The notes: generated from the sequence alone by a model not told the origin. DNA of 64,000 bases from a virus (IMGVR_UViG_3300033068_001655); one strand, 5' to 3'. Positions 5,567 through 27,637 are shown, counted from the first letter of the stretch. Made by a program: numbers and translations.

Positions 5567-5770
5567 ATGCCTGCTAAATCGAGACAGCAATTAAAATACA
5601 TATTTGCGATGCGTCGTAAATATAAAAATAAAAAAAGTGCTCCTAAACATATGAAGTGGGTATTTAACAAAGATTGGACCCACAATGTCAAAGCATCGGG
5701 GTTACCAACCAAAGTTAAAAATTTTCAAACCTATATATCCGAGAATTATGATGCTACTACTAAAAAGTAG
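5567..5770 (+). CDS. Small basic protein, DUF3008-like (MPAKS...KxxGLPxKV)
   Basis: MPAKSRQQLKYIF...KASGLPTKVK resembles the phage DUF3008 family from memory. Converges on and overlaps the tyrS 3' end by ~25 nt. Confidence 0.4.
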   Translation: MPAKSRQQLKYIFAMRRKYKNKKSAPKHMKWVFNKDWTHNVKASGLPTKVKNFQTYISENYDATTKK

Positions 5771-6999
5771 TTTTTCTTACCTCTCTGAACTATAATAAAT
5801 TTGTCATTTATCAAATCACCATCAGTTACGATGTAGTTATCTTCTCTTTTTATTTTATTTATTGCAACAGAGTTTTCTTTTAAGGCTCTTCTTGCTTCAC
5901 TAACAGATTTTAAGAACCCAGTTTTAAATAAAATATCAGTCATTGATATACCATTTACAATATCTTTCATTGGAATATTTGCCATTGGTAATCCACTAAA
6001 TATATCTAAAATTGTTTCATTATCAAGTGAATTTAAGTTACCGTTATTGAATAGAATGTTTGATGCTTCTACTGCTTTGTTAAACTCTTCTTCACCATGA
6101 ACCATTATAGTGATTTCTTTAGCCAATGTTTTTTGTAATAAAAACAAATGTTTGGCTTTATTGTGTTCTTCTATTAAATTATCAATAGTTTCTTTATCTA
6201 AAAATGTAAAGATTTTAATAAATCTTTCTGCATCTGCATCATCAGTACTTACCCAAAATTGGAAAAACTTGTAAACAGATGTTTTATCTTTATCTAACCA
6301 TATATTCCCACCTTCTGATTTACCAAATTTTGTACCATCAGCTTTTGTTAAAAGAGGACAAGTCATTGCAAATGCTTCTCTACCTGGGAACATCTTATGT
6401 ATCAATTCAGTACCGGTTGTTATATTACCCCATTGATCAGAACCACCCATTTGTAATAAACAGTTATGTTCTTTATTAAGGTGTAAGAAATCGTACCCTT
6501 GAATCAATTGGTAAGTAAACTCTGTGAAAGACATACCTTCACCTTCAATACGGTTTTTTACAGACTGTTTTGATAACATGTAATTTACGGTAATTCTTTT
6601 ACCAATGTCTCTTACAAAGTCTATAAAACTAAACTTTGACATCCAATCGTAGTTGTTAAGAACTGGTGTATCACCTAAAAATCTGGTTAAAGTATTTTTT
6701 ATACCTTCTACATTTTTATTAAGTATTTCTTCATCTAAAAGATTTCTTTCAGAAGATTTACCAGAAGGGTCACCGATCATACCAGTAGCACCACCGACAA
6801 CTGCGATTGGATTATGTCCAAAGTTCTTCATGTGTTTTAACAGAATTATTGGAACTAAACTACCTATATGTAGAGAATCTGACGTTGGGTCAAATCCAAT
6901 ATAAGCGGTGGTGGCTTCTTTTAAAAGTTGAGCCTCCGTTCCGGGTATCATATCATGTACTAACCCACGCCATTTTAATTCTTCTACTATATTTTTCAT
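5746..6999 (-). CDS. tyrS: Tyrosyl-tRNA synthetase, bacterial type with C-terminal S4 domain
   Basis: HIGH-class motif DPTSDSLHIGSLVP, GGSDQWGNI, KMSKS-equivalent KFGKS, C-terminal S4-like region. Confidence 0.9.
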   Translation of the reverse strand: MKNIVEELKWRGLVHDMIPGTEAQLLKEATTAYIGFDPTSDSLHIGSLVPIILLKHMKNFGHNPIAVVGGATGMIGDPSGKSSERNLLDEEILNKNVEGIKNTLTRFLGDTPVLNNYDWMSKFSFIDFVRDIGKRITVNYMLSKQSVKNRIEGEGMSFTEFTYQLIQGYDFLHLNKEHNCLLQMGGSDQWGNITTGTELIHKMFPGREAFAMTCPLLTKADGTKFGKSEGGNIWLDKDKTSVYKFFQFWVSTDDADAERFIKIFTFLDKETIDNLIEEHNKAKHLFLLQKTLAKEITIMVHGEEEFNKAVEASNILFNNGNLNSLDNETILDIFSGLPMANIPMKDIVNGISMTDILFKTGFLKSVSEARRALKENSVAINKIKREDNYIVTDGDLINDKFIIVQRGKKNYFLVVAS

Positions 7000-7403
7000 T
7001 ATGCTAATACTTCTTTAATTACTTCTGATACAACTTTTCTATCCACTTGTGCAGTAGCAAACTCTTTCATAATTCCACCAACATTGGTAATCCCTGATGC
7101 TACAAGTGCATTAACTTTTACAACAACATCTTCTCTTGTCATAGCAGCTGGAAGTAAAGCTTCAACCATTTCTAATTGAACTACAGACTCAGCATCACCA
7201 GAAGTTGCAATAACTTCTTTAAGAGATTTCGCAGTTTTATTAAGAATTTTAATTACTTCTGCATCAGAAAGACAATCTACTCCTGTATTTTTCTCAATAG
7301 TTTGGATCTCTCCTTTTACCACAGAAAGTAAGTTTTTTGCTACAGCATTTTTCTCTTTGAAAGCTGTCATGTAGTCTTTGCTAATTTGCTCTTTTAAATT
7401 CAT
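6999..7403 (-). CDS. yqeY: GatB/YqeY domain protein
   Basis: MNLKEQISKDYMTAFKEKN...LLSVVKGEI matches the YqeY family. Its stop overlaps the tyrS start (operon). Confidence 0.7.
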   Translation of the reverse strand: MNLKEQISKDYMTAFKEKNAVAKNLLSVVKGEIQTIEKNTGVDCLSDAEVIKILNKTAKSLKEVIATSGDAESVVQLEMVEALLPAAMTREDVVVKVNALVASGITNVGGIMKEFATAQVDRKVVSEVIKEVLA

Positions 7404-7660
7404 AATATTTAATTTTTAATAATTTTCTAAAAAAAATACCTTTTACATCTATTTTCTATATTTAATATCAAGGTAGTTCACTGTTTTTCATAAAAGGTAT
7501 TGAAAATTCATTTACCAGCTACTTACTACCATAAACACTAACTAAAACTATTTTGACCAAACTTTATTCTAACACGGTCGAGTTATAGTAGCTCATTATT
7601 TATTACTGCAAATATACTATAAAGTTTCAAATTAAAAAAATAAATTTAATATATAGTTGT

Positions 7661-9256: not shown

Positions 9257-9601
9257 TAAGTATAAATCATTTTGTCTAGCTTCTAATTCTGTTAAAAGAA
9301 AAACACATTCTCTTCTTAAATCTTTAAGTTTTAAAAAATCTGAGGTATTACTTACTTTAGATAATTGATCGTTAAGATTATCAATCTCAATTTTTATCAT
9401 ATCTATCATTAAGCTCATTTCTTTGATTATATCACCTTTTAAATCAAGTACTAAGGATTTAAAATAAGGATTTATCATAATAATTCCTTTATAATCACTA
9501 GAAGTAAAATTCTTCATGATTCTTTTAAGTATTTCTATGACTTCATCCTCAGTACCTGAAAGGTGTAGTTTATCGAGATATTCTAATAAGCTTAACTTCA
9601 T
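9248..9601 (-). CDS. Hypothetical protein
   Basis: 117-aa ORF. Confidence 0.4.
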   Translation of the reverse strand: MKLSLLEYLDKLHLSGTEDEVIEILKRIMKNFTSSDYKGIIMINPYFKSLVLDLKGDIIKEMSLMIDMIKIEIDNLNDQLSKVSNTSDFLKLKDLRRECVFLLTELEARQNDLYLLF

Positions 9602-10452
9602 ATCATCTTTTTACATTTATATATAAGACTGCTACTAAATCCTTTTTTTAATATATCCTTGATTGAGTAACCATCTTTTAACAAACCTTTTACCAATTCT
9701 TTTTTATCAGATTTTAATAACTTATCTTCTATTCTATCCCACTTTCTAGACATTATTGGTAGATTTAAACGAACACATTGTTCTTTAATATCTTTAAGTA
9801 TATTATACTTTGATATAAAGATAATTGAACAATTTTCATATATTTTTGCATCTTTAGTTTCCTTAGTTAAATGAGTATAGAAATATTCTAATATAGAAGA
9901 CCAAGATTCATGACATTTAATTATCAATCTACCTTTTTTATTAATAGAGCCATCACCGTCAATAAACCCTATTATTAAACTAAATAATTGTTCATCATTT
10001 AACCAATTAGGTAGTATAGGAGGTATTTTAGTTTTATTGGATTTCCAATTAAAATCTCTAGTAATTTTATCTATAGTTATTTTATCAGATAAAACTACAC
10101 TAATTCTACTTTCATTTTCATATACTTTTACATGACCCAAATGATCTGTTATTTTTAATATATGTAATCTATCCTTAGTTGATATATTTATTTGTATTCT
10201 TTTATCTTTTGTAATATGTCCATCTGCTAACATAAACCCCAACCAATAACAAGAAATATTATCATATTCTATTAATTTGGAATATTTAAAACTATTATTG
10301 TTTTCATTAAAACTTCTTTTTATTTTAAAAAAATGTGCTTTCTTTTGTATATAGTTCCAAGATAATCCTAAATCAGTAATAATAGTTTCTTTACTTGAAG
10401 ATGGATAATTTTCTTTTAAATAGTTCTCTAACTTTGTTTTAGTGTGTCTCAT
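9598..10452 (-). CDS. LAGLIDADG homing endonuclease (double-motif, free-standing)
   Basis: YWLGFMLADGHI and LIIGFIDGDGSI motifs. TAATATATAGT motif ~20 nt upstream of the ATG. Confidence 0.8.
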   Translation of the reverse strand: MRHTKTKLENYLKENYPSSSKETIITDLGLSWNYIQKKAHFFKIKRSFNENNNSFKYSKLIEYDNISCYWLGFMLADGHITKDKRIQINISTKDRLHILKITDHLGHVKVYENESRISVVLSDKITIDKITRDFNWKSNKTKIPPILPNWLNDEQLFSLIIGFIDGDGSINKKGRLIIKCHESWSSILEYFYTHLTKETKDAKIYENCSIIFISKYNILKDIKEQCVRLNLPIMSRKWDRIEDKLLKSDKKELVKGLLKDGYSIKDILKKGFSSSLIYKCKKMI

Positions 10453-10470
10453 ATTACATATAGTTTTTTA

Positions 10471-10914
10471 CTATATATTAATATTTAGATTTCTCTTTAG
10501 ATCTAATTTAATATCTCTTGCTTTAATATCTTCTTTTTTATCCCAAGTTTTCTTACCTTTAGCAACTGCTATTTTTATTTTTATACGGTTATGTTTAATA
10601 AACATACCCAGTGGAATTGCGGTCGTACCTTTATCTTCCAATTTTCTTTTGATTCGAGTAATTTCTTTTTTATTTAAAAGAAGTTTCTTATCACGATTTT
10701 CTTCGTGTTTATCTAAAGTGTGTGCTGACTTATAAGGAGCGACTTTTAGATTTTTAATCCAAACTTCATTATCCTTTATATAAATGAAAGCATCCACCAG
10801 AGTCACATTACCCATTCTAACTGACTTTACTTCACTACCAACCAATACAATACCACAATCAATCTCTTCTAAAAAGATATAATCGTATCTGGCTCTTCTA
10901 TTTAATGCTATCAT
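10471..10914 (-). CDS. smpB: SsrA-binding protein SmpB (trans-translation factor)
   Basis: ALNRRARYDY...GSEVKSVRMGNV...KKLLLNKKEI...GMFIKHNRIKIKIAVAKGKKTWDKKEDIKARD aligns along its full length to bacterial SmpB. Confidence 0.85.
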   Translation of the reverse strand: MIALNRRARYDYIFLEEIDCGIVLVGSEVKSVRMGNVTLVDAFIYIKDNEVWIKNLKVAPYKSAHTLDKHEENRDKKLLLNKKEITRIKRKLEDKGTTAIPLGMFIKHNRIKIKIAVAKGKKTWDKKEDIKARDIKLDLKRNLNINI

Positions 10915-11452
10915 ATTTTATAATTTTATAAGAATCTCCTTCCCTGTTCTTAATTACTTTTATTATATTATCTTTGTTTTGTTGAGTTATAATCACTGCT
11001 AAATCTGAGGAATATAGTGTAGATGAACCACCCATAAATGAACCATTACCAGTTGTATTTAGTGGACAAGTAAGTATCAACTTAATATCACAAATTGATT
11101 TATTATTTCTATTGTCTCTTAAATAATCTCTTACATCATAAATAGTTGACTGTATTGCTCTAGAAGCTTCCATATCACGATTAGTGAAGTTATTTCTTTC
11201 TCTAAATAAAGTTCTTATATCATTTATATCTAATACAATGTAATCAATTTTATGTTCGTTATTTAAAACTTGGTCAATCTTCATATCTCTAAAAATAGAC
11301 TTCATAGAAAAAGATGAACTTAAATCTATTTTCTTGGTTGAACCAAGATTAGAAATAATTTCATCTTTAACTCTTTCATCTAAAAATCGATAACCAATTA
11401 AGGTTGTCTCATTTTTACTAATTAGATCATATAAATAATCTATAGTTTCCAT
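10898..11452 (-). CDS. Hypothetical protein (possible degenerate RecA/KaiC-like fold)
   Basis: 184 aa; no Walker A motif seen. Confidence 0.35.
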   Translation of the reverse strand: METIDYLYDLISKNETTLIGYRFLDERVKDEIISNLGSTKKIDLSSSFSMKSIFRDMKIDQVLNNEHKIDYIVLDINDIRTLFRERNNFTNRDMEASRAIQSTIYDVRDYLRDNRNNKSICDIKLILTCPLNTTGNGSFMGGSSTLYSSDLAVIITQQNKDNIIKVIKNREGDSYKIIKYDSIK

Positions 11453-11769
11453 TATAGATATTGCTCTACAAGTTCAGACAATTTTTCTTTAGTAGTCATA
11501 CCAACACTTCTATCTACAATTTCTCCATCTTTATAGATTAAGATTGTAGGAATGTTTCTAATACCTAACTCCGCGACTTTTTCACCATTTGGGGTTGCGT
11601 CTAATTTACCAACACTAACCTTTCCTTGAAAGTCAATTGAAATTTGGTCTACAATTGGTGCTATTTGACGACATGGTCCACACCAAGTTGCCCATATATC
11701 TACTAATACTACTCCACTTTCTACAAACCCATCATAGTTTGTTTCATTTAATTCTGTTATAAATGCCAT
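11452..11769 (-). CDS. trxA: Thioredoxin
   Basis: WATWCGPCRQIAP active site, 105 aa. Confidence 0.9.
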   Translation of the reverse strand: MAFITELNETNYDGFVESGVVLVDIWATWCGPCRQIAPIVDQISIDFQGKVSVGKLDATPNGEKVAELGIRNIPTILIYKDGEIVDRSVGMTTKEKLSELVEQYL

Positions 11770-11816
11770 AATTTATTATTTAAAGTTTTTTATTATATTA
11801 TTTTTTTGTTAAAAGT

Positions 11817-13055
11817 TTAAAATTCACAAGCAACACACTCACTAACCTCTGTTTTAGATAAAATATTATCAACCATTGCATTATGTCTATCATCTACTAT
11901 TTCTTTTCTTACTGTAAGTTCATAAAGTAAAGCAGTCGCATCATCAATTTCTTGATCAGGTTCAATCATATGTTTTTCCAATACAGAAAAAGCAATTGAC
12001 TTATCGTGTTTGTACCTTTCTAATAGTGATTTTATTATTTTAATTTGTTCAGTTAGTTTATATCCTCTTAGATTAAGAATTGTCCTTGGTAAAAACTTAA
12101 TTGTATTTGATAATAGCTTCATATCTTCTATATCAACTCCACCATCTACATAATCTTCATTTATAAATAAAGGTCTCAATTGATTCCATATATTTTTCAA
12201 TTCTTGATTATTATAAATGTTTCTTAAATAAAATAGTAAATCTTCACCTTTATGAATTGCTAGAAGATTGTTATCAATGAATACTTGTTCTTTTTTAGTT
12301 TTTAAAGTCCATAGATTCACATCTTTGTTGTATGTCTTTTTGACGTGTTCTATACAATCTAAATCTTGTTCTATTGTAAAATAGTTATTAAGTATTTTAT
12401 AATTGTTAAACATATTGAAATATCTATCTTGAAATCTAACTTTATAAACGTCTTGAAGCTGACGTACTAAAACATATTGAATAATATCTAATTCAAATAA
12501 GTTTAAATCAACTTTAAGTTCTTCTGATTTTTTTACAATTCTAATTGCTGTATGACAAGGTGTTTTTAAATTAGTTATTTTAAGCTTACCAGTCTTTAGA
12601 AATTTTTCAAATTCTGGTGTCCAATAAAACCTATCTTCTTCAATTGAATAACCAACTGCAGTACAGTTTATATCAAATGATTTGATAATAATTTCTGGAT
12701 TATGAGTATTTGATTTATAACTAACGTAGTTGAACATACCGTCGGTGGTTGACTCACAAATAGAGTAATAATTTTTAGCTCTGTCAATAAATCTAAGACC
12801 AGAGTAATCATCATACCAAACGTTTTCTTCATCTTCTTTAAATGAAAAGAAATACTCTTTTCTATCTTCGTTATAATTTTCTAAAAGTCCATCAAACAAA
12901 AAAACATCAATATCATTGATGATTGCTTTTGTACCGGAGACTTCCTCCCATATAAGATTTGATATAGAACCACCTGCAATAAACCCTCTTTTGGGTAGAC
13001 CCCATTGTGATTTTATTTTATTGATAGCATTCCTTGCTAATTGTTCAACATTCAT
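11817..13055 (-). CDS. Putative nucleotidyltransferase (Pol-beta superfamily fold)
   Basis: N-terminal GFIAGGSISNLIWEEVSGTKAIINDIDVFLF carries GS...DxD. Confidence 0.4.
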   Translation of the reverse strand: MNVEQLARNAINKIKSQWGLPKRGFIAGGSISNLIWEEVSGTKAIINDIDVFLFDGLLENYNEDRKEYFFSFKEDEENVWYDDYSGLRFIDRAKNYYSICESTTDGMFNYVSYKSNTHNPEIIIKSFDINCTAVGYSIEEDRFYWTPEFEKFLKTGKLKITNLKTPCHTAIRIVKKSEELKVDLNLFELDIIQYVLVRQLQDVYKVRFQDRYFNMFNNYKILNNYFTIEQDLDCIEHVKKTYNKDVNLWTLKTKKEQVFIDNNLLAIHKGEDLLFYLRNIYNNQELKNIWNQLRPLFINEDYVDGGVDIEDMKLLSNTIKFLPRTILNLRGYKLTEQIKIIKSLLERYKHDKSIAFSVLEKHMIEPDQEIDDATALLYELTVRKEIVDDRHNAMVDNILSKTEVSECVACEF

Positions 13056-13195
13056 TATTTTTTCTTTTTGATGTTTAAAACTTGTGCTACGTGGTCATTT
13101 ATTACTCTAACAGGAGTATCAGAAGAAGTCTGATTTACATCCTTTACTTCTTCTGATTGTTCTTCTGTTGTTTTTGTTTCTTTGTCTTTATTCAT
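13055..13195 (-). CDS. Small 46-aa ORF translationally coupled on both sides (TAATG overlaps)
   Basis: MNKDKETKTTEEQSEEVKDVNQTSSDTPVRVINDHVAQVLNIKKKK. Its ATG overlaps the sigma-factor stop and its stop overlaps the next ATG. Not in the track (under 60 aa). Confidence 0.35.
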   Translation of the reverse strand: MNKDKETKTTEEQSEEVKDVNQTSSDTPVRVINDHVAQVLNIKKKK

Positions 13196-13797
13196 TAGTC
13201 TAAATACATTTCATCTATTTGATCAAACTCTTTCTTAGATTGTTCCATCAAAATCTGACGACCGTTTCTAATTTGAGATTTTATTGTAGATAAATTTTTT
13301 CCTAACTTATCCGCAATGTCTTTATATTGCATTCTTTCAATCTCTCTCATTATAATAACTGTCTTATACGGTTCTTTTAATTCAGAGATATGTTTTTTCA
13401 TTACGTCTGCTTTTTGTGAGAAAACATCATAAACTGCTTCATTACTTTCTGTTTCTTGTATAAAGTCTTTTAAAGTAGTTCCTTCATCATCAAACTCAAT
13501 GTCTAATGATATGTTTCTGTTTTCAAGTTTTTTATCTTGTAAAGATAAGTTTTTTGCGATTGTGAATAACCACGTTGAAAATTGTGATTTTTCTTTTTGA
13601 TACATTTCTATTTTTTCCAGTGCTATCATAAATGAGTCTGTTGAAATGTCTTCAGCTTTTTGTACATCATTACAAATTCTTGATGTAAAGTAGATTAGTT
13701 TTGGGTAATACTTTTGATAAAGTGTTGCGAAATCTTTACCAGTTCTTTCTTTAAAAATTTTCTCTTGTTCAGAGAATGGGGTTGTGCTTAATTCCAT
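13195..13797 (-). CDS. RNA polymerase sigma factor, sigma-70 family (ECF-like, regions 2 and 4)
   Basis: Region 2 FATLYQKYYPKLIYFTSR...AEDISTDSFMIALEKI...FSTWLFTIAKN and region 4 YKTVIIMREIERMQYKDIADKLGKNLSTIKSQIRNGRQIL. Confidence 0.8.
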   Translation of the reverse strand: MELSTTPFSEQEKIFKERTGKDFATLYQKYYPKLIYFTSRICNDVQKAEDISTDSFMIALEKIEMYQKEKSQFSTWLFTIAKNLSLQDKKLENRNISLDIEFDDEGTTLKDFIQETESNEAVYDVFSQKADVMKKHISELKEPYKTVIIMREIERMQYKDIADKLGKNLSTIKSQIRNGRQILMEQSKKEFDQIDEMYLD

Positions 13798-13907
13798 AGA
13801 TTGCTTTTGATTTTTCTAGTTGACTTGCCGTCAATTGCTTTTGATTGTGTGCTCGTAATTTTCTAATTGCCTTAATAATATTATATTATTTATATATTAA
13901 AAAGTTG

Positions 13908-15458: not shown

Positions 15459-15620
15459 TTAATATAATTTTATAATTTTATTTTCTGGTATTGGTTCGCC
15501 ACATACCGCACATTCTGTATTATATTTCCAATCTTCTTCATTGTCAAAACCTTCACCACAATTATCACAACATCCTCTTGATACTTTTGTATCACTTAAT
15601 ATTTTTTGATTATCCTTCAT
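15459..15620 (-). CDS. Small zinc-ribbon-like protein (53 aa, CCDNCG...CAVCG)
   Basis: ATG at 15618-15620 and stop at 15459-15461 fill the gap between two genes. Two CxxC pairs. Not in the track (under 60 aa). Confidence 0.35.
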   Translation of the reverse strand: MKDNQKILSDTKVSRGCCDNCGEGFDNEEDWKYNTECAVCGEPIPENKIIKLY

Positions 15621-15930: not shown

Positions 15931-17762
15931 TATTTTAATAAATTTTCTAATTCTTCAACTGTTAAAATAGTTACACCTAATCCAATTGCTTTTGTTTCTT
16001 TAGATGAACCAGAACCTTTAGCTTTCATTACTAAGTAAGTAGTGTTTTTAGATACAGAACCAGCAACTTTACCACCACGTGATTCAATTACTTCTTCTAA
16101 GTCCGCTCTACGAACACCAGTAAATACAAATGATTTACCTTCTAAGTCAGAACCAACTTTTACTGCTTCTACTTTCTCAGCAATTGTTATTGGAAGACCT
16201 TTTACAAATGTAAAGAAATTATCATAGTTATCAACAAAAACTTTTGCAGAAATTTCAGCAAATCCTTCAATCTCCATAACTTGGTCAACTGTAGGTTTAG
16301 TTGTAAAGTGTTCTAACAAAGCTAACTTCTTACTACCTAATCCTCTGAACAAACCTGTAGCGTGTTGAAGTTTAGATAATTGTACATCTTTAGTAGACTT
16401 TTGAATTGAGTTGTAAACAATTTGAGCTTTACGTTTACCAAATCTATCAATTTTTTCTAATTGAGATTGAGTAACATTTAAAATATCTTCTATTGTTTTA
16501 TAACCAGCATCCCATAATTGAGTAATAATACCTTCTGACACATTGTCAGCTTCTAAGATTTCAAAGAAAGCAATGTTTTGCTTTAACTTTTGATCGTCAG
16601 TTTCGGTTAAAGTAACTAACTCAATACCATTCTCATTCCAACCAATTTCAGTACCTTCAACAGTTGGCATAACAAAGTCAACAGTTTCTAATACTTCAAC
16701 AATCAATGGAATAACCATACCACTTCTTTTAACAACAACTTTCGCACCAATTCCTAAACCCATATCTTTTACGAATTTAGCATTGTTACCAGTTACGTTA
16801 GAAACAGTTACACCGTCTAATTTAATAGGAGTTATATGTAAAACAGGTTTTAAAAGCCCGTGTTTAGAGATGTTCCAAGAAATACCTAAGACTTCAGCTT
16901 CAGCTCTTTGTTCAAAGGAGTCGTGTTTAAATGCTCTTGCATAACAAGGATTGTTAGAAGAGGTTTCACGTCCTAAACTTTTTTGTAAACCTAAATCATT
17001 TACCTCAATGATAAGTCCATCAATTTCATAATCAACTGACCATTCTTTGAATAAAGATATAAGTAATTCTTCACTAATACTTTCTATATTAGTTAAGTGA
17101 TATTTAACTTTGATTTCCTGACCTTTATTTAATTCATCTAAGATTTGACTTTTAAATTCAAATGATGCTCCTTTTGTAGGAATTGCACCATATTTAATAA
17201 ACTCACAATCTTTTAATGACTCTCTTGCATCTGGTGAATTTAATAAACCAGCCACTAAGTTACGTGGATTTGCAAAGTCAGAATATTTTTCTGTGAAATT
17301 TTTCTTTGACATCATTACTTCACCATAGGTAAAGTCAAATATGTTAGTTTTAGATGTAAAGTGATTTTTTATTAGTTTGTAGTGTTCGTCAGATTTTTGA
17401 CCATACTCACCATCGCCTCTTGTAAAGGCTTCTTTGGTTGACTCATTAACACATAATGATAAACCATCAAATTTAGGTGTAATAACAAGTTCGGCACATT
17501 TAACAATGTTTTTCAATCTAAACCAGTCAAGAATGTCTTGCATAGTTTTGATTTTATTCATTGATGCCATATCAATTGGAAGTTTAGCTTTTCTAGTTTC
17601 ATCGATAACTTCTAATCCTACTTTAGAGAAAAACTCATTCTCTGGATCATATGAGTAAAGTAAATCAACCATTTCATCATACTCTTTGTCTGACATGATT
17701 GCATTACCAGTTCTATAAGCGATATTTGCTTCTTCTAATTTAGTTACTATTTTATCTATCAT
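15930..17762 (-). CDS. ligA: NAD-dependent DNA ligase (LigA)
   Basis: N-terminal Ia domain YRTGNAIMSDKEYD, adenylation motif VITPKFDGLSL (KxDG), OB/Zn/HhH regions. C-terminal BRCT-like FVFTGVRRADLEEVIESRGGKVAGSVSKNTTYLVMK. Confidence 0.92.
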   Translation of the reverse strand: MIDKIVTKLEEANIAYRTGNAIMSDKEYDEMVDLLYSYDPENEFFSKVGLEVIDETRKAKLPIDMASMNKIKTMQDILDWFRLKNIVKCAELVITPKFDGLSLCVNESTKEAFTRGDGEYGQKSDEHYKLIKNHFTSKTNIFDFTYGEVMMSKKNFTEKYSDFANPRNLVAGLLNSPDARESLKDCEFIKYGAIPTKGASFEFKSQILDELNKGQEIKVKYHLTNIESISEELLISLFKEWSVDYEIDGLIIEVNDLGLQKSLGRETSSNNPCYARAFKHDSFEQRAEAEVLGISWNISKHGLLKPVLHITPIKLDGVTVSNVTGNNAKFVKDMGLGIGAKVVVKRSGMVIPLIVEVLETVDFVMPTVEGTEIGWNENGIELVTLTETDDQKLKQNIAFFEILEADNVSEGIITQLWDAGYKTIEDILNVTQSQLEKIDRFGKRKAQIVYNSIQKSTKDVQLSKLQHATGLFRGLGSKKLALLEHFTTKPTVDQVMEIEGFAEISAKVFVDNYDNFFTFVKGLPITIAEKVEAVKVGSDLEGKSFVFTGVRRADLEEVIESRGGKVAGSVSKNTTYLVMKAKGSGSSKETKAIGLGVTILTVEELENLLK

Positions 17763-17791
17763 AATTATTTTATTTCTACAAATATACGAAT

Positions 17792-18028: not shown

Positions 18029-18101
18029 AACACAAATATACAAAATAAAAGTTAAAGAATAAACAAAATTTAATATATACTAAAAAATCAAAAATCATAA
18101 A

Positions 18102-21100
18102 ATGGTTCAAAGTTCATTTCCAAAAGTAGCGGATCAAATAATAACGTATAATAAAAATATAGTTGAGATTTTATCAAAAATCAATTCTTTACAAACTACT
18201 CAAAATCCATCTGTAACTTTACAAGTATATGATGAGAATGGTGTGTTAAGAAATTATACACTACCATCTTTTTCATCTTTAAAAGCAGATATTGATAGAT
18301 TGAATAATAATATCAATTCTCTTTATAGTATTGATGCAGCAGGTGCTTTAATTCAAACATCAACTCAAAATAAATACAAAAAAATCATTACTGTTGATTT
18401 GAATAGAGACCCTACTCCTGTAGGAAGTTTAGGTTCTTTGACTACTTTTAAATCTGCACCTAACTGGTTCTTTGACTCTCTTATGGACCCTATGGTTTCA
18501 GTAGAGATTGATTTATCAGGTAAGATTGAGGATAATGTTAGAAAATGTTTAGTTAGAAGATATATTGTAGAGTTTGCAAAAAATGCAGACGGTACATTTA
18601 CTACACTTGGACAATCAGCGTTAAATAGTTATAACCAATTATTTAGAGGAAATGGAAATATAGTTCTATCAGAATTTGAGAACTGGTATACAACAACTAC
18701 TGGTTTAGTAAACCCTAGTAATCCTAAATATGATGAACAAATGTTTGATTTAGAACCTAATAACTTATTATATGATGGTCAGTTTAGTGTTTTAAGAATA
18801 CAAGAAGATAGATTAAATAGAAAACTTTGGTATGTTTTAGATACACTTGATTATTTAGTAGTTGATACAAACTCAACTAAAAAATTATCTATTGGTGATG
18901 AAGTTATTATAAACTCTGATAAAACATCGACAAGATATAAAATATTAGAAGTTTCTACTGCAGAGTCTAATCCAAAAATTAGAGTTGAGAGAGTTGAAGG
19001 TATTGAACCAATTCCAGTTGGAATTGGAACTTTGAAAGTTTATTCATCGGTTATTTATACTAAAAAAGTTAGAGTAAGTGTTGGTTATAATGAGAGAAAT
19101 ATTCTTTTTATCAAACCAGTAAATGCTGATAATAATTTAGTTGCAAAAAAATGGAGTTTAGGTACAGGTTACTATACAAATGATTTGAGATTGGATTCTA
19201 CATCTAGTGCAAATGGTTTATCAATGGAACAATTTTACATCGATTATGTTTATGATTATGGGGTTGTTTTACAAGATTTAGTTGCAAAGAAAACTCCTAA
19301 TTCATTGGCCGGTACACCATTATCACCAACATTGACAACTGATAACTTTAAGGTTGTTCAAATTAATAAACACCTTACAGATACACCTGATTCTAACTTA
19401 ATTAAACAAAAACATAACTATCAATTATCTTTAAAATCTGAGATACAACAAATACAAGAAGCTATATTAGCGAGAAATAAAGCTGGTAAGTTTACTAAGT
19501 TTAAGTCAGATTCTGCCAAAAAACAAGCAGACTTAGAAATACAAGATTTAACTACTAAGAAAGATAGTAAAAGTAAACTATTGGCATCCGTAACTCAAGA
19601 AATTATTGACTTATCAAAAGATCCAAAGAATAAAGTGGCTCCTAAGTTTAGTGTAAGAGGTTTCTGGACTATACCAAGTGCAGTTGTTACTACTGGTACT
19701 AAACCACAAGAGATCGTTCAATTTAGAGTACAGTATAGATATACAAGTAAAGATGGTAAAGAAGCTCCAGTAGATACATTTACTATTACTGATTCTCAAA
19801 GTAAAGCTTCCTATTCTAACTGGAATGAGTATAAGACAGATGCTAGAAAAAGAGAATATAATAGTACAACTGGTGAGTACACTTGGGCAATAGAAGATAT
19901 TACTAATGCAGATACTCCGAATATTAATCAAATAGATATTCCAGTTCAGTCTAATGAAAGAGTTGATATTAGAATTAAATCTATTTCTGAAGTTGGTTGG
20001 CCAGAATCTCCAGTTGAATCTGATTGGTCAGAAATTATCACAATTGACTTCCCAGATGATTTAAACACTATCGCAAATGAAAATGATTTCATTTTGGCTG
20101 CCGCAACTAAAGAAGATTTAAAAGTAAGTGTTAATTCAGAATTATCCGCAAAAGGATTAGATAGTCACTTAGCAGATACGGTAACTGTAAATAATGTTAC
20201 ATTTCATCATGAGGCTAAAAAGATTTTATCCGGTTTCCAAGATGAGAATGGTGTATCATTAGATTTGTATGCTTACATTCAAAAGTTGACTGATAGAATT
20301 ACTTCACTAGAAGAAAAAATCACAAGAGCTAAAGGTGAACTTCAAATTATTATTCTTAGAAATAATCAAGAGTTTATTGTTAATAATGGTTCAGAGACAA
20401 CATTCAACGTTGAATGTGAAGATTATTTAACCACATTTACTGGACAAGGTGCTCCAACAGGAAGAGTTTATGAGAATAACATTTATGTTATTAAAGACTT
20501 TGTTATAAAAGTTAAAAATAATGCAAAAGAGTCATCATTAGGTTTATTATCAAATAGAACTTACTTGGGTAATTCTGATACTGTTTATAACCCAATAACA
20601 CCACAAGTATTCTGGGTTAATAATCAGGATGAGTTGAAAACAATTGATGTGATTAGTGGTCAAACAAGAACTCAAATGGATAATCAATTTATTTGGTCAG
20701 TAAACTATGACTCGATTACTCAAACTACAGTTGCAAAACTATCTGAAAACATTGGTAATAACTTTACTAATTCAGGAGTAAACTCAAACTCTATTACAAA
20801 TGTACTTTCAACAAACGATTATAATGTTGGATATAACGAAAATACATTGTTATCATTTATTGGTAAAAATAATTCATTGTTAGATCCTTCAAAATGGATT
20901 GATACTGCAGTTTCTGTTTCTTCAACAACTAAATTCTTAACTACTATACATCCAGTTGTAAAAGACTTGGAAAATATTCAAGAGTTAAATAGTGATAAAG
21001 TTAAAACAATTGCACCAGGTGATAAAAATTCAGTTATAATACCATTAAATATTTATTTCAAATTAAACTCACTTGATACAAGCTTAACAGGTTTAAACTA

Positions 21101-21308
21101 TCAATATGTTGATTTTAATAATGCAACGAAAACTGTTAAACACGTTAAGAAGTTAAAGTTCTTCTTAGAGAATGAATCTGAAAACAGACCATTTGTATTT
21201 ACTCTTAAATTTAACTTAAATAGAAATAAAGTTATTGTTAGAAAGTTTAATTCAACTGGTGGCGGACCTGCTTATATTGATGATTGGTCAACATCAAGTA
21301 AAAAATAA
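18102..21308 (+). CDS. Large Asn/Thr-rich putative virion structural protein (1068 aa)
   Basis: Long ORF with TAATATATACT motif 22 nt upstream. No recognisable enzyme motifs. First gene of a plus-strand block of large proteins. Confidence 0.5.
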   Translation: MVQSSFPKVADQIITYNKNIVEILSKINSLQTTQNPSVTLQVYDENGVLRNYTLPSFSSLKADIDRLNNNINSLYSIDAAGALIQTSTQNKYKKIITVDLNRDPTPVGSLGSLTTFKSAPNWFFDSLMDPMVSVEIDLSGKIEDNVRKCLVRRYIVEFAKNADGTFTTLGQSALNSYNQLFRGNGNIVLSEFENWYTTTTGLVNPSNPKYDEQMFDLEPNNLLYDGQFSVLRIQEDRLNRKLWYVLDTLDYLVVDTNSTKKLSIGDEVIINSDKTSTRYKILEVSTAESNPKIRVERVEGIEPIPVGIGTLKVYSSVIYTKKVRVSVGYNERNILFIKPVNADNNLVAKKWSLGTGYYTNDLRLDSTSSANGLSMEQFYIDYVYDYGVVLQDLVAKKTPNSLAGTPLSPTLTTDNFKVVQINKHLTDTPDSNLIKQKHNYQLSLKSEIQQIQEAILARNKAGKFTKFKSDSAKKQADLEIQDLTTKKDSKSKLLASVTQEIIDLSKDPKNKVAPKFSVRGFWTIPSAVVTTGTKPQEIVQFRVQYRYTSKDGKEAPVDTFTITDSQSKASYSNWNEYKTDARKREYNSTTGEYTWAIEDITNADTPNINQIDIPVQSNERVDIRIKSISEVGWPESPVESDWSEIITIDFPDDLNTIANENDFILAAATKEDLKVSVNSELSAKGLDSHLADTVTVNNVTFHHEAKKILSGFQDENGVSLDLYAYIQKLTDRITSLEEKITRAKGELQIIILRNNQEFIVNNGSETTFNVECEDYLTTFTGQGAPTGRVYENNIYVIKDFVIKVKNNAKESSLGLLSNRTYLGNSDTVYNPITPQVFWVNNQDELKTIDVISGQTRTQMDNQFIWSVNYDSITQTTVAKLSENIGNNFTNSGVNSNSITNVLSTNDYNVGYNENTLLSFIGKNNSLLDPSKWIDTAVSVSSTTKFLTTIHPVVKDLENIQELNSDKVKTIAPGDKNSVIIPLNIYFKLNSLDTSLTGLNYQYVDFNNATKTVKHVKKLKFFLENESENRPFVFTLKFNLNRNKVIVRKFNSTGGGPAYIDDWSTSSKK

Positions 21309-21318
21309 TATTTAAAAA

Positions 21319-24300
21319 TTGAGAAGCTTTGGTTTATTAAGAACAAATGTTGGATTGACAACAAATATAAAAGTTATGGTTGATACTAATTATAAACTTA
21401 GTTTAGATAGTATTGATTCTGATGTTAATTTATCATTTGATAAATTTAAAAAAGTTTCCTTTACAAAAGATAATTACTATGATGAGTTGATTCCTTATTT
21501 CTATAAGGATTTACCAGCAGATACTGCATTCTCTATTAAATATGAGAATGATTCTGAAAGTATGTCTGATGACTTTAAAAATCAATACGATGAGTTATAT
21601 AACTATGGTGCTCGTAATATTGTTGATAATAAAAACTATTCTGAGGAATATGAGTACTTTGCACCTTTATACATTACTAAGAATGGGTTACCTAAGAAAT
21701 TTATAATTTTTAGAGTTGATGGTTCTGGTATTGGTAATCTAAGAAAAGATAACTTTAAAAGTGAGATACTTAAAAAGTTAAAAACAGTTAAGTTATTTGA
21801 CTTAACTAAGGAATCTGCATTAGGAGAATGGATTGGTAAAAACTTTACCGATAATAAATACTTTCCAGACTCACCATTGGATATTGATTTTAGAAACTTA
21901 GAGTTTTGTAGATGGAATGGTATTGATTATCAGAATGGTGGTTATACGTATAAATCATTATTCATAGATGATATATTAGACGAAGAGAAAGAAATATATG
22001 AACTTGAAAAGTTTGTATTTGACTCATATAAGAATAATAAAGTTGTTTTCCCAAACATACTAAACCTTTCATTCTTATTTGATGATACACCTTCTACACC
22101 AGAGATTAAAAGAAAATGGTCGATAAACAGGTATTATGGGTTCTATTTAGAAGATTTAGAATTTGTTACATCAATATCACCATATCTTCCGGTTGGATTA
22201 CAGTCTGATATACAAGTACTACCAGGAAATATCTTATATTCCGCAACTAGTTCTAATCCATTTCTTCAAGATTGGAGCGATAAAAAACCATTTTATGTTG
22301 AATATAATGGTACTTATTATAAAGTAGAACAGTTTACAGAAACAGTAACTAATCAATTGATTAAGATGAATAATCCATTAAGTACTGTTGAAAGTAGAAC
22401 TAAAAAAGATTTGGGATTTAGAACCTCTAAAGGTTCTTCTAGTAATGATGTAATTAAGAAGTCTGTAACTACAAATGCTAAGTCTGCAGTAGAAGAATTT
22501 GGAGATATTATTATTACTAAATATAGAATTATATCAGACTTGGATCTAAGTGGTTTAACAGCATCTAGTTTAAATCAAAATTTTGGTCAAATTGATTCTA
22601 CAAATAGATTGATTCGAGACAATAATGCTAATTTTGAAATTAGTAGTTTTGATGATCAGGATGGTAATATTGGTGCTTGGCTAATAGAGATCGATGGTGT
22701 TTATCATAATTTAATTAAAGATGGTACTGTATTAAAACTTAGTACTGATTATTCATTTACATTTAATCAAAATGACTTTTCTTATAAAGTTGCAGGAAAA
22801 TCAACAAAGGTTAGTACAGTTGTTGATTTTAATAACGTACCTAAAAAGTTTCCTATTTATAGAGTAAAGTTTACTGATATTAAAGATTTTGATACCAGAA
22901 TTGTTGATACTGAGTTTTCAAAATACGAGTATGAAGAATATGATAAGATAACTAAAACTGATGAGACAAAGATGTATTTAGAAAATATTCTAAGTAATTC
23001 TAGTCCTATAGATTTAGATGACTTTATTTATAAAGATGAGGTTGTCAATATCCCAGTTTCATCAGAATATACTGCAAATTATGAAACTTTTAAAATAGAT
23101 ACAGATTTATCAGAGATATGGAGAAAGAATTCTGTTTATTGTAGATGGGGATTTCAAAAATCTTTATCTGCAAATGATATGCCATATCTATTAAATAACT
23201 CTTTAATATTTGAAGATTTTAATAGAACTGCTAATATTATGGATCCGTTCCCTAAAAGAATGGAGAGAAATTTAGATTATTTCTATACTATAAACTCTGC
23301 AAGTGCTTCTTATTTACATCACACCTTACACGTAGAAAATGTAGATAATGGTAACATTGATAGTACTTTTAGATTTAATTTAGAGAAGTATTTAAACTTT
23401 GGAACTTTCTCACATGATTATTTCTCATATTTATTTGGTAAGAAATCAAGTTTTTTAAATGATAAGATTCAAAAAAATACTACAAAGTATTCTTACTTTA
23501 ATGTAGGAGATGAGTCGGTTCCGAATCATACCTTATTTAGAGGATTAAGATTTGATCTTTATGAGGTAAATGGAATTAGTTTAAATTCTAATAATCAAAT
23601 AGATAAAATAAATATTAAGTCTTCTAATAAGTTTGATGATTATAAATTTTCTATTTTACTATCCGATAATGATTATCAACCAATATTTGCAACTAATTCT
23701 AATCAAATCATTGGAATAACTCAGTCTATAAATGATCTTCAATGGAAGGTATTAAAAGAGTGGAGAATGGACACACAATATAGTATTGATGATATTGTTA
23801 TTTTTCATGATATGTTATTTGTTTTAAGTGGTTCACAATCTAAAAATAGTCCAGTTGCTAAAATTGGAAATACTTCAGTTTCATCAAATCCTATTACGCA
23901 AGGTTTTCAATTCTATGAAGAGCAATTGGCAAGAACTATATTTTGGAGTCCTAACTATAATAAACAATATGTTTATAATTCAGGTGAGTACTACTTTCAG
24001 AAGAATGGTGATGTAGACTTCTGGAATCCAAGTATTTCTTATGATTTGGGTAGTATAGTTTTATTTAAGAATAGTTATTATAAATCAATTATAAGTGATA
24101 ATAGATATAACCCTTTAGAGTCTAATGGTTGGGAGAAAACAGAATTGACAGAACAAACTTCTAAATGGGGTTTAATAGAAGTTTGGAATCCAAAAAAAAT
24201 ATATGTCTCAGATACTTATGTTATATTTAATGATGAGTTATATTATATTCAACCGAGTTTAACACCGGTATTAAATGAAGCAAAGAAAAAGGTTAACGAT

Positions 24301-25413
24301 GTGTTTTCTACATCACCTTTAGAAACCAACTATTGGGTAAAAAAACCATCATTGTATGCTGATACAACATCAAAATTTAATCTAAATAATGTAGTTGAAA
24401 TGAACGATTCATATTATTTATGTACTGCAAAGAGTCCTGATTCTACATTAGATAATAATATTATTATTTATATCAACAAAAAATGGAAAAACGTTTTAGT
24501 CAATATAAATATTGCAGATAATACCTATATAAATATATCAGAGACAAATAGAGATAATTTATATGATATTCTTTATAAAAAATTGACTGCACTTAATTTT
24601 ACAAATGTAGTAAATGATATTACTAATAAATATGGATTCTCTGACTATATCTCATATATAATTACTGAAGAGGATGGAACGACTAAGAAGTATGGATATC
24701 AATTCTATGATTCGATTCATAATAGAAAAATAGAGAATATTAAGGATCTACCTTATTTACTTAGATGTGAAGAAGCTGATAAATTAGATGTTAAGGTTGA
24801 TTCCTTGATAAAAAGAGCGGTTCAACTACCAAATACATTAAACCCATTCAGAAAATTGAATAATGGTAAAATAGTTGACTTAACACAATTAAACTATTAT
24901 AACAACATTCCAGTTGCTGCAAATATTATTGAGAGTCAATTTGAACCAAAGGTATTTGAAAATTATCATGGTAATAAAAATATAGTTACTAATGACATTT
25001 ATAGATATAGTGGTTACTATTCACCTATCTTCTATGATATTCAGTTATTTGAAAGAAATGAATTTGATTTAGGTAATTATAAGTTTGATCTTAGTTTAAC
25101 TGATTTTGGTTTAATGAAAGAAAGAAAAGTTAGAAAAATAAATAGAAAAGGTAGTCAGTTGAGATTAGTAAATGTAAATGATGAAAAGTCAATATATCCG
25201 ATGTTGGATGAGTTTGGTTATTCAGTTTATGATTTCTTTATATTCTCATCAACTTGGGATTTAAAGTATTATTTAGAAACAAGTCAATTAAGTAAAACAT
25301 CTAATTATTTAGAGAGATATACTATTGATGAAAATGTAGTTAATAATTTACAGGATGTTACTATACCTACTTTAATACCTACTGATATAGGACAAATACA
25401 AAATAATAATTAA
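21319..25413 (+). CDS. Large putative virion structural protein (1364 aa; apparent TTG start)
   Basis: Long ORF starting ~10 nt after the previous stop, in a different frame. Confidence 0.5.
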   Translation: MRSFGLLRTNVGLTTNIKVMVDTNYKLSLDSIDSDVNLSFDKFKKVSFTKDNYYDELIPYFYKDLPADTAFSIKYENDSESMSDDFKNQYDELYNYGARNIVDNKNYSEEYEYFAPLYITKNGLPKKFIIFRVDGSGIGNLRKDNFKSEILKKLKTVKLFDLTKESALGEWIGKNFTDNKYFPDSPLDIDFRNLEFCRWNGIDYQNGGYTYKSLFIDDILDEEKEIYELEKFVFDSYKNNKVVFPNILNLSFLFDDTPSTPEIKRKWSINRYYGFYLEDLEFVTSISPYLPVGLQSDIQVLPGNILYSATSSNPFLQDWSDKKPFYVEYNGTYYKVEQFTETVTNQLIKMNNPLSTVESRTKKDLGFRTSKGSSSNDVIKKSVTTNAKSAVEEFGDIIITKYRIISDLDLSGLTASSLNQNFGQIDSTNRLIRDNNANFEISSFDDQDGNIGAWLIEIDGVYHNLIKDGTVLKLSTDYSFTFNQNDFSYKVAGKSTKVSTVVDFNNVPKKFPIYRVKFTDIKDFDTRIVDTEFSKYEYEEYDKITKTDETKMYLENILSNSSPIDLDDFIYKDEVVNIPVSSEYTANYETFKIDTDLSEIWRKNSVYCRWGFQKSLSANDMPYLLNNSLIFEDFNRTANIMDPFPKRMERNLDYFYTINSASASYLHHTLHVENVDNGNIDSTFRFNLEKYLNFGTFSHDYFSYLFGKKSSFLNDKIQKNTTKYSYFNVGDESVPNHTLFRGLRFDLYEVNGISLNSNNQIDKINIKSSNKFDDYKFSILLSDNDYQPIFATNSNQIIGITQSINDLQWKVLKEWRMDTQYSIDDIVIFHDMLFVLSGSQSKNSPVAKIGNTSVSSNPITQGFQFYEEQLARTIFWSPNYNKQYVYNSGEYYFQKNGDVDFWNPSISYDLGSIVLFKNSYYKSIISDNRYNPLESNGWEKTELTEQTSKWGLIEVWNPKKIYVSDTYVIFNDELYYIQPSLTPVLNEAKKKVNDVFSTSPLETNYWVKKPSLYADTTSKFNLNNVVEMNDSYYLCTAKSPDSTLDNNIIIYINKKWKNVLVNINIADNTYINISETNRDNLYDILYKKLTALNFTNVVNDITNKYGFSDYISYIITEEDGTTKKYGYQFYDSIHNRKIENIKDLPYLLRCEEADKLDVKVDSLIKRAVQLPNTLNPFRKLNNGKIVDLTQLNYYNNIPVAANIIESQFEPKVFENYHGNKNIVTNDIYRYSGYYSPIFYDIQLFERNEFDLGNYKFDLSLTDFGLMKERKVRKINRKGSQLRLVNVNDEKSIYPMLDEFGYSVYDFFIFSSTWDLKYYLETSQLSKTSNYLERYTIDENVVNNLQDVTIPTLIPTDIGQIQNNN

Positions 25414-25415
25414 AC

Positions 25416-26105: not shown

Positions 26106-26135
26106 ACTTATTATTTACTTATTCATAAAAATGAT

Positions 26136-26498
26136 ATGAATAATGAAGAATTGAACGAACACTTGGCTAACTTTTTAAAGATGTTTAAAAACAGACCTTA
26201 TCATCTGGCTAAATATTTAATTGATAATTCTGCACTGAATAAATCATTCATTAATAAAATTATAAAAAGTGGTAAACTAGAAGAACAAAAACCGGAAGTT
26301 TACCTAACTGATATTTCTGAAATGGAAGATTATTATAGTTCTATTTTAGACCCTATTAAAATGGGTAATAAAACTGTAGAAGAAATCACCAAGGAGATCA
26401 ATGATAAGATGGATGAACTTATCAAAAACGAGAAATTTGAAGAAGCTGCGAAACTTAGAGATTATATGAATAAAAAATCTATAAAAAGAATCAAATAA
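26136..26498 (+). CDS. UVR-domain protein
   Basis: C-terminal KNEKFEEAAKLRDYMNKK matches the UvrB/UvrC UVR motif. Confidence 0.45.
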   Translation: MNNEELNEHLANFLKMFKNRPYHLAKYLIDNSALNKSFINKIIKSGKLEEQKPEVYLTDISEMEDYYSSILDPIKMGNKTVEEITKEINDKMDELIKNEKFEEAAKLRDYMNKKSIKRIK

Positions 26499-26548
26499 AA
26501 ACAACTTTTTTAAAAATCGAACTAAAACATAAACACTAAAATAATTAT

Positions 26549-27637
26549 ATGACAAACGAAATTTTAAACCCAGAATTAGGAAACCCAGATTTCGAGCTTT
26601 TATTCGAGGAAAAAAGCTATAGAAAGGGTAAAAATATGAGTGATAAAGATCTTGATGCTCTTTATAGCTCTATTAAATTAGAAGTGCCACAAGTAGGTAA
26701 TGTGGTTAGATCTAAATACCAAGGTATTATGGCAAATCAGTTTGTATTTAGCGTTGACGGATTCAAAGATGATGTTAGAGTTGAAGACAAACCAGGTGAA
26801 GCTAAATACCTTAAAAATTGCAACACTGGAGATGAGGTTGATGTTTTAATTACCGAGATAAATCACGGTCAATATTTCATCAAAGGAAGTATAGCTTCTT
26901 TATATGAGTCAAGAGCTCACGAAAACCTTAAATCTCTAGAGGAAGGAGAATCAGTAACTGCCTACGTTAGAGCACTTAACCCAGCTGGTTATGATGTTGA
27001 GATTACAAATGGAGGAGTAACTCTTCCAGGATTTATGCCAAATACCTTAGCAGGTATCAACAAACTTTACGACCCAACTTCAATTGTTGGAGATACGTTC
27101 CAAGTTATGATTGAGTCTTTCTCAGAACATGAAGGAACTTATATCGTAAGTCGTAGAAAATACTTACAAACTTTAATTCCAGAAGAAATTAGTAATCTTG
27201 AGTTTAATGTGTTGTATAGTGGTAGAGTAACTGGAACAACACCATTTGGTATCTTTGTCGAGTTCAACGAGTGTTTAACTGGTATGATTCACAAAGCAAA
27301 TGTGACTGAAGAGTGGCAAAACAGAATCTCCGAAATTAAACCAGGACAAGAGATTGAGTTCTTTATTAAAGAAATCATTAAGGAGAAAATTATCCTTACT
27401 CAAGTTCTGAGAGAAACACTTTGGGACACCATCAAAAACGGTCAATTGATCGATGGTAAAGTAAAAGATGTTAAGCAATTTGGAGCTTTAGTTATCTTAG
27501 ATGATGAAACAGTTGGATTAGTCCACACATCAGAAATGGAGAAACTTGGTAGAAAGCTTACATCTGGACAGGACATCAAAGTAAAAGTTTTATCAGTTGA
27601 TAGACAAAGTCGTAAAATTTTTCTTACAATTGGATAA
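26549..27637 (+). CDS. Multi-S1-domain RNA-binding protein (ribosomal protein S1-like)
   Basis: Three S1 repeats recognised, including C-terminal GKVKDVKQFGALVILDDETVGLVHTSEM...GQDIKVKVLSVDRQSRKIFLT. Confidence 0.7.
   Translation: MTNEILNPELGNPDFELLFEEKSYRKGKNMSDKDLDALYSSIKLEVPQVGNVVRSKYQGIMANQFVFSVDGFKDDVRVEDKPGEAKYLKNCNTGDEVDVLITEINHGQYFIKGSIASLYESRAHENLKSLEEGESVTAYVRALNPAGYDVEITNGGVTLPGFMPNTLAGINKLYDPTSIVGDTFQVMIESFSEHEGTYIVSRRKYLQTLIPEEISNLEFNVLYSGRVTGTTPFGIFVEFNECLTGMIHKANVTEEWQNRISEIKPGQEIEFFIKEIIKEKIILTQVLRETLWDTIKNGQLIDGKVKDVKQFGALVILDDETVGLVHTSEMEKLGRKLTSGQDIKVKVLSVDRQSRKIFLTIG

Follow-up and report, generated by a model that had tools for sequence, protein, structure and literature searches.

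Huge phages have been reported to carry transfer RNA (tRNA) synthetases, ribosomal protein S1, SmpB, transfer-messenger RNAs (tmRNAs) and CCA-adding enzymes, and they have been proposed to intercept host translation; Shine-Dalgarno sites are rare in those that encode S1 (Al-Shayeb et al., 2020, PMC7162821). The repertoires described for huge and Lak phages comprise tRNA arrays, aminoacyl-tRNA synthetases, rpS1, SmpB, sigma factors and a CCA-adding enzyme (PMC7162821; Devoto 2019; Crisci 2021, PMC8346664), with ‘CCA addition’ listed among Lak functions (Devoto et al., 10.1101/356790), and a TTA suppressor tRNA is found in every Lak genome, with introns present in Lak tRNAs (Crisci et al., PMC8346664). 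Here, we analyzed a 64,000-nt stretch of viral DNA, IMGVR_UViG_3300033068_001655 (hereafter the window; coordinates are counted from its first letter), in which the segment 5746–27637 encodes a tyrosyl-tRNA synthetase (TyrRS), a YqeY protein, SmpB, an S1-like protein and a Pol-beta-type nucleotidyltransferase (NTase) near a tRNA island (Table 1). In our judgment the gene content and gene order are explained best, with somewhat better than even probability, by a conserved Lak/Mahaphage segment beside the tRNA island, in which several independent auxiliary translation genes sit among unrelated genes. The clade, the translation-redirection hypothesis, the intron-containing tRNAs and the TTA suppressor tRNA are all shared with the described huge-phage and Lak repertoires; unlike the Lak/Mahaphage genomes searched, however, the lineage of the window adds a Bacteroidota-type TyrRS in a yqeY-tyrS unit. 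The takeover of host translation, which an earlier note on this DNA had inferred from these genes, is a hypothesis already published for huge phages (PMC7162821), and since the same kinds of genes were reported there the concept is not new. The finding is thus a correct re-discovery in a new genome that overturns none of the current views, and its new points are modest: a lineage-specific Bacteroidota TyrRS, an SmpB without a tmRNA, and the Gad2 identity of the NTase together with its CCA-adding-like fold.

The window has a G+C content of ~28%, and its open reading frames (ORFs) of at least 100 amino acids (AA) cover 90.6% of it; the segment holds ~21 substantial ORFs. TAA is the stop codon in 51/64 of these ORFs, and the standard code fits the window; reassignment of TAG or TGA was rejected, as neither gave longer ORFs and TAA was the dominant stop. 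The contigs that carry relatives of the NTase and the S1-like protein are 587–656 kb long, and in the GenBank phage collection the window proteins match the uncultured phages LR745206 (635 kb) and LR756502 (642 kb), the sole nucleotide-level match to that collection being window 15924–16934, within ligA, against LR756502.1 (74.6%). We assign the window to a Lak/‘Mahaphage’-type megaphage with a predicted Bacteroidota host because of the size of these relatives, the protein matches to LR745206 and LR756502, the presence of SmpB in all named Lak genomes, the Bacteroidota-like TyrRS and an intron-containing TTA suppressor tRNA like that of Lak.

To place the segment, gene order was compared with three relatives, a 635-kb contig (L001), a 587-kb contig (L002) and the complete 642-kb genome LR756502. 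All genes that the earlier note had named were recovered at their positions by ORF calls and profile searches, and most of them recur in the same order in LR756502: S1 (348.3 kb), a UVR-motif protein, orf229, orf1364 and orf1068, then LigA (358.3 kb), the sigma factor (363.7 kb), the NTase (365.3 kb), thioredoxin (366.7 kb), orf184 (367.1 kb), SmpB (367.6 kb), orf117, an orf531 on the opposite strand, and YqeY (372.1 kb), after which the tRNA island follows (373–435 kb, with 44/46 tRNAs). The same order was found in L001 and L002. As the arrangement is conserved in three relatives, the block is genuine synteny rather than a coincidence limited to a single genome, and the adjacency to the tRNA island that had been pointed out before is kept as well (YqeY, then the island, in LR756502). 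The translation genes are nevertheless interleaved with trxA, ligA, the sigma factor, two giant ORFs, a RecA-like protein and homing endonucleases, and both strands are used; what had been called a loose cluster is therefore loose synteny rather than a functional operon. Judged from gene order, then, the segment is a conserved synteny beside the tRNA island and not one operon, so that the clustering proposed earlier stands as synteny in L001, L002 and LR756502, but not as a single transcription unit, and TyrRS falls outside the conserved block.

The same observations bear on the possibility that there is no functional connection at all, and that each auxiliary gene, marginal or redundant by itself, was acquired independently in a variable, endonuclease-rich region. 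We regard this as unlikely, though it is the alternative that survives best. It would account for the varying presence of TyrRS among close relatives, for the three types of homing endonuclease found across different genomes in this region, for the ligase, sigma factor, giant ORFs without assigned function and RecA-like protein interspersed on both strands, and for a canonical CCA-adding enzyme that lies ~230 kb away in LR756502. What it explains poorly is that the order of S1, SmpB and YqeY beside the tRNA island is kept at ~55–60% protein identity, and that S1 keeps 68–97% identity over many contigs, a sign of purifying selection. A conserved segment holding independent auxiliary translation genes remains our preferred explanation.

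We found that the assignments of a bacterial-type TyrRS and of YqeY, both made previously from the sequence, pass their profile cut-offs. TyrRS matches TIGR00234 over residues 1–415 (389.3 bits vs. an equivalog cut-off of 113.8) and PF00579 (tRNA-synt_1b, 258 bits), and its C-terminal part (residues 332–414) matches PF22421 (53.9 bits) and the S4 domain (24.3 bits). Its best match in the PDB is 6n0w_A (522 bits), a solved TyrRS in which both signature motifs of the phage protein, ‘HIGS’ (SLHIGSL) in place of HIGH and KFGKS, are identical; we infer that the enzyme is catalytically plausible, with no sign of inactivation in its sequence. The 80 best cellular relatives are all from Bacteroidota (56–66% identity). 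Full-length bacterial-type TyrRS proteins are likewise encoded by jumbo phages (Yersinia phage fHe-Yen9-04, Serratia phage BF, Cronobacter phage GAP32 and Xanthomonas phage XbC2), but these are only ~38–41% identical to that of the window, which, being closer to cellular Bacteroidota than to the jumbo-phage enzymes, was therefore acquired independently of them. Among the relatives, L001 has TyrRS as well, whereas L002, LR756502 and the deposited Lak genomes, all of which were searched, lack it. By this distribution it is a lineage-specific insertion between yqeY and the tRNA array, and a recent gain from Bacteroidota. YqeY, on the other hand, lies beside the tRNA island in L001, L002, LR756502 and LR745206, with or without TyrRS; it matches PF09424 at full length (residues 4–133 on profile positions 1–143; 43 bits vs. 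a cut-off of 27). The yqeY stop codon overlaps the tyrS start by one base, and the two genes are therefore very probably co-translated. TyrRS would supply charged tRNA-Tyr and thereby keep tyrosine codons decoded during infection; LR756502 has two tRNA-Tyr(GTA) genes, and there is none in the window.

The S1-like protein had been described as a multi-S1-domain homolog of ribosomal protein S1, and this homology survives profile search. It is colinear with E. coli S1 residues 41–344, that is, with domains D1–D4 (in a profile of the Lak family, positions 46–360 align to E. coli S1 residues 17–345), and Pfam S1 (PF00575) detects its last two domains only, as in true S1. The D1–D4 colinearity is a feature shared with bacterial S1 (E. 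coli rpsA with six domains; NF005208 with four domains in low-GC Gram-positives), and, as in bacterial S1, D1–D2 are divergent while D3–D4 are canonical S1 domains. The protein, labeled ribosomal protein S1 by JGI, is shared by Lak-type contigs at the identities given above and is also found in huge phages of 634–735 kb and 462 kb. The UVR-motif gene upstream of it, on the same strand, is kept in LR756502. Bacteroidota hosts are expected to have a six-domain S1. The short phage version would dock on the host 30S subunit through D1–D2, and its D3–D4 would capture phage mRNAs. Its N-terminus carries a conserved motif, GNP[DE][FL][DE]xL[FY], which may resemble the F-x-x-L-F-E-E of the S2-docking helix of E. 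coli S1; neither a PDB search with the N-terminus nor the family profile aligned it.

The NTase was expected from the earlier note to be a CCA-adding or tailing enzyme, and here the structural intuition was right, but the protein is not a canonical CCA-adding or poly(A) enzyme. The protein has a Pol-beta motif (AGGS...NDIDV) that agrees with motif A of class II tRNA NTases (GGxVRD...DxD) and a head-neck fold like theirs, with ~180/412 residues aligned to these enzymes and the body and tail unmatched; its matches in BFVD include predicted structures of viral ‘tRNA nucleotidyltransferase/poly(A) polymerase’ proteins. However, there was no match to PF01743 (PolyA_pol) at E≤0.01, searches of Pfam, NCBIfam and PHROGs gave a sub-threshold NTP_transf_6 only, and the sequence gave nothing but noise against the PDB. 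The RRD and EDxxR motifs of class II tRNA NTases (CCA-adding enzymes and bacterial poly(A) polymerase; PF01743) are both missing: in 26/26 aligned homologs the motif B and D positions, placed by inspection, read IKSFDIN and TPCHTAIR instead. Moreover, the CCA-adding enzyme of LR756502 is a different protein, with PolyA_pol (101.5 bits), an RNA-binding domain and the canonical motifs GGSVRD...DFDL, ERRDLTWNA (RRDLTWNA) and EDPLR. A second, short protein in the same genome (~220 AA, LR756502.1 ~524.0–524.7 kb, + strand) has a motif A reading GGAIRD...HDVDI and a sub-threshold PolyA_pol score of 17.4 bits.

The precomputed annotation points elsewhere: PF26128.2 (‘Gad2’) is recorded for a 100%-identical protein (P0001) and ~115 relatives, with the PF26128 label at E≤1e-5 in L001 and ‘weak’ in L002; an identical NTase is also present on a contig of 175.8 kb. 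The copy of Pfam used for our own scans is without PF26128, and Gad2 itself is unmatched there. Gad2 is the Gabija anti-defence protein 2 of Bacillus phage SPbetaL7, a protein of 400 AA with a predicted nucleotidyltransferase domain that is required for escape from Gabija (Yirmiya et al., 10.1101/2023.05.01.538930), and whose mechanism was listed as unknown in 2026 (PMC12904381). Compared directly with SPbetaL7 Gad2 (OQ921347), the NTase gave a BLASTP match of the NTase motif only (E 0.06) and an hhalign probability of 3.7%, whereas a hidden Markov model (HMM) of the N-terminal 235 residues, built from 101 family representatives, scored 20.5 bits on Gad2 vs. a best of 8.6 in 500 shuffles. Three motifs are colinear between the two (AGG..NDxDI, FDxxxC and P..s..R..K), and the C-terminal halves are without similarity. 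From the motif-only pairwise match and the N-terminal HMM, the NTase is therefore a distant Gad2 member that shares the catalytic half only. Both proteins are phage-borne, ~400 AA long and equipped with an N-terminal Pol-beta nucleotidyltransferase domain; they differ in host phylum (Bacillota for Gad2, Bacteroidota for the NTase) and in setting, Gad2 lying in the SPbeta anti-Gabija locus and the NTase between the sigma factor and trx-smpB. In the phage collection, tblastn with the NTase reached the two uncultured 635–642 kb phages only, and not SPbeta phages. Taken together, the predicted role of the NTase is most likely that of a Gad2-family counter-defence enzyme with a CCA-adding-like head, and not that of the phage’s tRNA CCA-adding enzyme.

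An alternative of rather low probability is that the NTase is an RNA 3’-end enzyme that tails or repairs the ends of tRNAs or tmRNA-like molecules and works with the neighboring SmpB. Its BFVD matches would fit, as would the block NTase-trx-orf184-smpB-orf117, syntenic in the window, L001, L002 and LR756502. It is also true, as had been noted before, that no tRNA here encodes CCA: every tRNA 3’ end in the window was read directly and CCA is encoded at none of them. The missing PolyA_pol match, the residues KSFDIN and TPCHTAIR at the motif B/D positions of all 26 members and the canonical CCA-adding enzyme elsewhere in a relative all argue the other way, and the 540–550 kb Lak-A/B/C genomes, in which the NTase is absent, still carry SmpB, so that the NTase and SmpB are not obligatorily linked. 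An extension of this idea, which we hold to be more doubtful still, is that NTase, thioredoxin, the RecA-like protein, SmpB and orf117 form one module in which the NTase modifies or repairs tRNA-like 3’ ends, of phage tRNAs without an encoded CCA or of the host tmRNA that SmpB has to borrow. Were this true, the module would sustain translation as well as ribosome rescue against a nuclease-based defence of the host, and an RNA-directed mechanism would be suggested for the Gad2 anti-Gabija family.

The earlier note had also proposed a full-length SmpB, and the homology holds in profile searches, with both NCBIfam equivalog cut-offs passed (NF003843, 173.4 bits vs. 130; TIGR00086, 162.2 vs. 119.1). 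The protein aligns through residue 143/147 to A. aeolicus SmpB (residues 9–150 of 156) and ends in a basic C-terminal tail (GKKTWDKKEDIKARDIKLDLKRNL; tail motif GKKxxDK...K/R), and as the alignment runs this far, the functional C-terminal tail, the part that sits in the mRNA channel, is present. By tblastn, all 15 named Prevotella phage Lak genomes contain SmpB, as do three uncultured phages of ~635–642 kb (LR745206, LR756502 and LR756504). In the huge phages described, tmRNAs were reported together with SmpB (PMC7162821), but searches of the window with ARAGORN and with Rfam, at gathering thresholds and at E≤1, gave no tmRNA, and neither did ARAGORN or Rfam on the complete 642-kb LR756502, which leaves SmpB without a tmRNA partner in both. 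It presumably pairs with the tmRNA of the host, and the two would recycle ribosomes together. Suppressor tRNAs would drive ribosomes past stop codons to mRNA ends, and thereby the demand for rescue is plausibly raised in a recoding phage. That SmpB is instead a decoy, sequestering host tmRNA or blocking trans-translation rather than promoting ribosome rescue (e.g. to keep phage proteins from being tagged or to dampen a host response that depends on tmRNA), would agree with the lack of a phage tmRNA and with the known interplay between phages and the tmRNA system (PMC7162821), but is highly improbable for a full-length protein with nothing degenerate in it that passes the equivalog cut-offs and keeps the conserved C-terminal tail needed for ribosome function.

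Several points weigh against the picture of a conserved set of auxiliary translation and counter-defence genes given above. The S1-like protein has four domains and scores far below the equivalog cut-offs of bacterial S1 (TIGR00717, 99.7 vs. 577; NF005208, 99.1 vs. 368); its N-terminal 129 residues found no match in the PDB, and the family profile aligned nothing of its 45-AA N-terminal leader to the N-terminus of S1. A tmRNA or other aminoacyl-tRNA synthetase genes could lie outside the window, and a very divergent tmRNA could escape both ARAGORN and Rfam. TAG recoding has been published for Lak, and none is visible within the window. Finally, the NTase resembles the founding Gad2 only weakly in these alignments, and only within its N-terminal ~190 residues; anti-Gabija activity is therefore not transferable to it with confidence.

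The part of the tRNA island inside the window was delimited by ARAGORN, in its default and intron modes, and by Rfam. Among its genes is an intron-containing UAA-suppressor tRNA (2830–2963, − strand; anticodon TTA, 62-nt intron after position 30), called in ARAGORN intron mode and missed by default ARAGORN and by Rfam. A reading of this gene as a disrupted tRNA-His was rejected, since the intron-mode call is a clean tRNA whose anticodon is TTA. The tRNA gene overlaps the ORF at 1566–2861 at its GTG-start end, and the true start of that ORF is probably an ATG further in. Next to it, the tRNA at 2969–3044 (− strand) has an 8-nt anticodon loop, for which ARAGORN gives an anticodon of four bases, ‘gaag’, and may be either a pseudo-tRNA or a Phe-like tRNA of the frameshift type. 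A tRNA-Leu(tag) whose intron is 9 nt long (3370–3456, − strand) was called in ARAGORN intron mode only, and a tRNA-like gene at 202–284 (− strand), with a long variable arm and a fold that reads Ser(GGA), had a sub-threshold match to the tRNA-Sec model as its sole match. The tRNA island of LR756502 has a full-length GOLLD RNA (RF02032, 275 bits; LR756502.1 ~434.7–435.1 kb) at its far end, with a tRNA directly after it; GOLLD gave no match within the window.

Table 1. Positions and family assignments of features in and around the segment (window coordinates; sizes of proteins in AA).
Feature	Position	Strand	Size (AA)	Family matches and remarks
tRNA island, part inside window	202–4014	−		ARAGORN, Rfam; ~16 tRNA genes
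TyrRS	5746–6999	−	417	TIGR00234, PF00579
YqeY	6999–7403	−	134	PF09424; upstream of tyrS
LAGLIDADG-type free-standing homing endonuclease	9598–10452	−		phrog_4645 ‘endonuclease’ 55 bits; LAGLIDADG_3 26.8 bits; downstream of smpB
SmpB	10471–10914	−	147	PF01668 169 bits
orf184, RecA-like fold	10898–11452	−	184	Without Walker A motif; between trx and smpB
Thioredoxin	11452–11769	−	105	PF00085 90.5 bits
Pol-beta-type NTase, Gad2 family	11817–13055	−	412	Motif AGGS...NDIDV
ECF sigma factor	13195–13797	−	200	TIGR02937
NAD-dependent DNA ligase LigA	15930–17762	−	610	Adenylation, OB, HhH and BRCT domains
UVR-motif (UvrB/UvrC) protein	26136–26498	+	120	Directly upstream of S1-like gene
S1-like protein	26549–27637	+	362	PF00575 78 bits

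The remaining genes of the segment belong to other processes. Thioredoxin, which scores above its Pfam cut-off, is conserved in L001, L002 and LR756502, where it is syntenic with the NTase and SmpB, and the stop region of orf184 overlaps the smpB start by 17 nt. The ECF sigma factor (TIGR02937, 67.8 bits vs. a cut-off of 42.9; Sigma70_r2, 48.8 bits; r4_2, 42.5 bits) has Sig70_bacteroi1 as its best subfamily and is 68% identical to the LR756502 copy; sigma region 3 was undetected, Pfam giving Sigma70_r2, r4_2 and, below its cut-off, r4 only. The domains of LigA pass their Pfam cut-offs, the NF005932 score (240 bits) being under the cut-off of 369, and LigA is a replication and repair gene, not a translation gene. 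The LAGLIDADG gene has no counterpart in LR756502, and near smpB the relatives carry a DUF723 (L001) or a GIY-YIG (L002) gene in its stead, which indicates an active turnover of mobile endonucleases at this spot. In all, three free-standing homing-endonuclease-type genes were seen in the window, the LAGLIDADG gene, an HNH+HTH gene (277–1113, − strand) and an HNH_3/NUMOD4 gene (4018–4428, − strand).

Giant ORFs of 1068, 1364, 1803 and 1741 AA, essentially without family matches, occupy the regions 18102–25413 (+ strand), 38751–51096 (+ strand) and 57976–61803 (− strand), together with a 1275-AA protein that has two glycosyltransferase domains and a methyltransferase domain; LR756502 has conserved counterparts of the 1068- and 1364-AA proteins (54–68% identity). 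A perfect TTGACA-17-TATAAT lies in intergenic DNA (15519–15547, − strand) upstream of the minus-strand run orf200...sigma, NTase, trx, smpB, and a strong bidirectional hairpin terminator (4459–4482) stands between the small ORFs on the tyrS side and the HNH/tRNA array, with no other minus-strand terminator-like site between the two. A scan for sigma-70 promoters gave 102 sites, no excess over shuffled sequence (96.9), and such a scan is uninformative for AT-rich DNA and a Bacteroidota host.

These results add one more example of the largest known phages carrying parts of the translation apparatus, and the origin of the TyrRS in Bacteroidota is useful for host assignment. SmpB, universal in Lak-type phages and without a detectable tmRNA in the window and LR756502, offers a clean test of whether a phage co-opts the trans-translation RNA of its host, and a link between SmpB and stop-codon suppression is plausible because the UAA-suppressor tRNA lies 8 kb away. 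The NTase links a gut megaphage to the Gad2 family, and a catalytic half that is CCA-adding-like, yet without the nucleotide-selecting motifs, narrows the hypotheses for the mechanism of Gad2.

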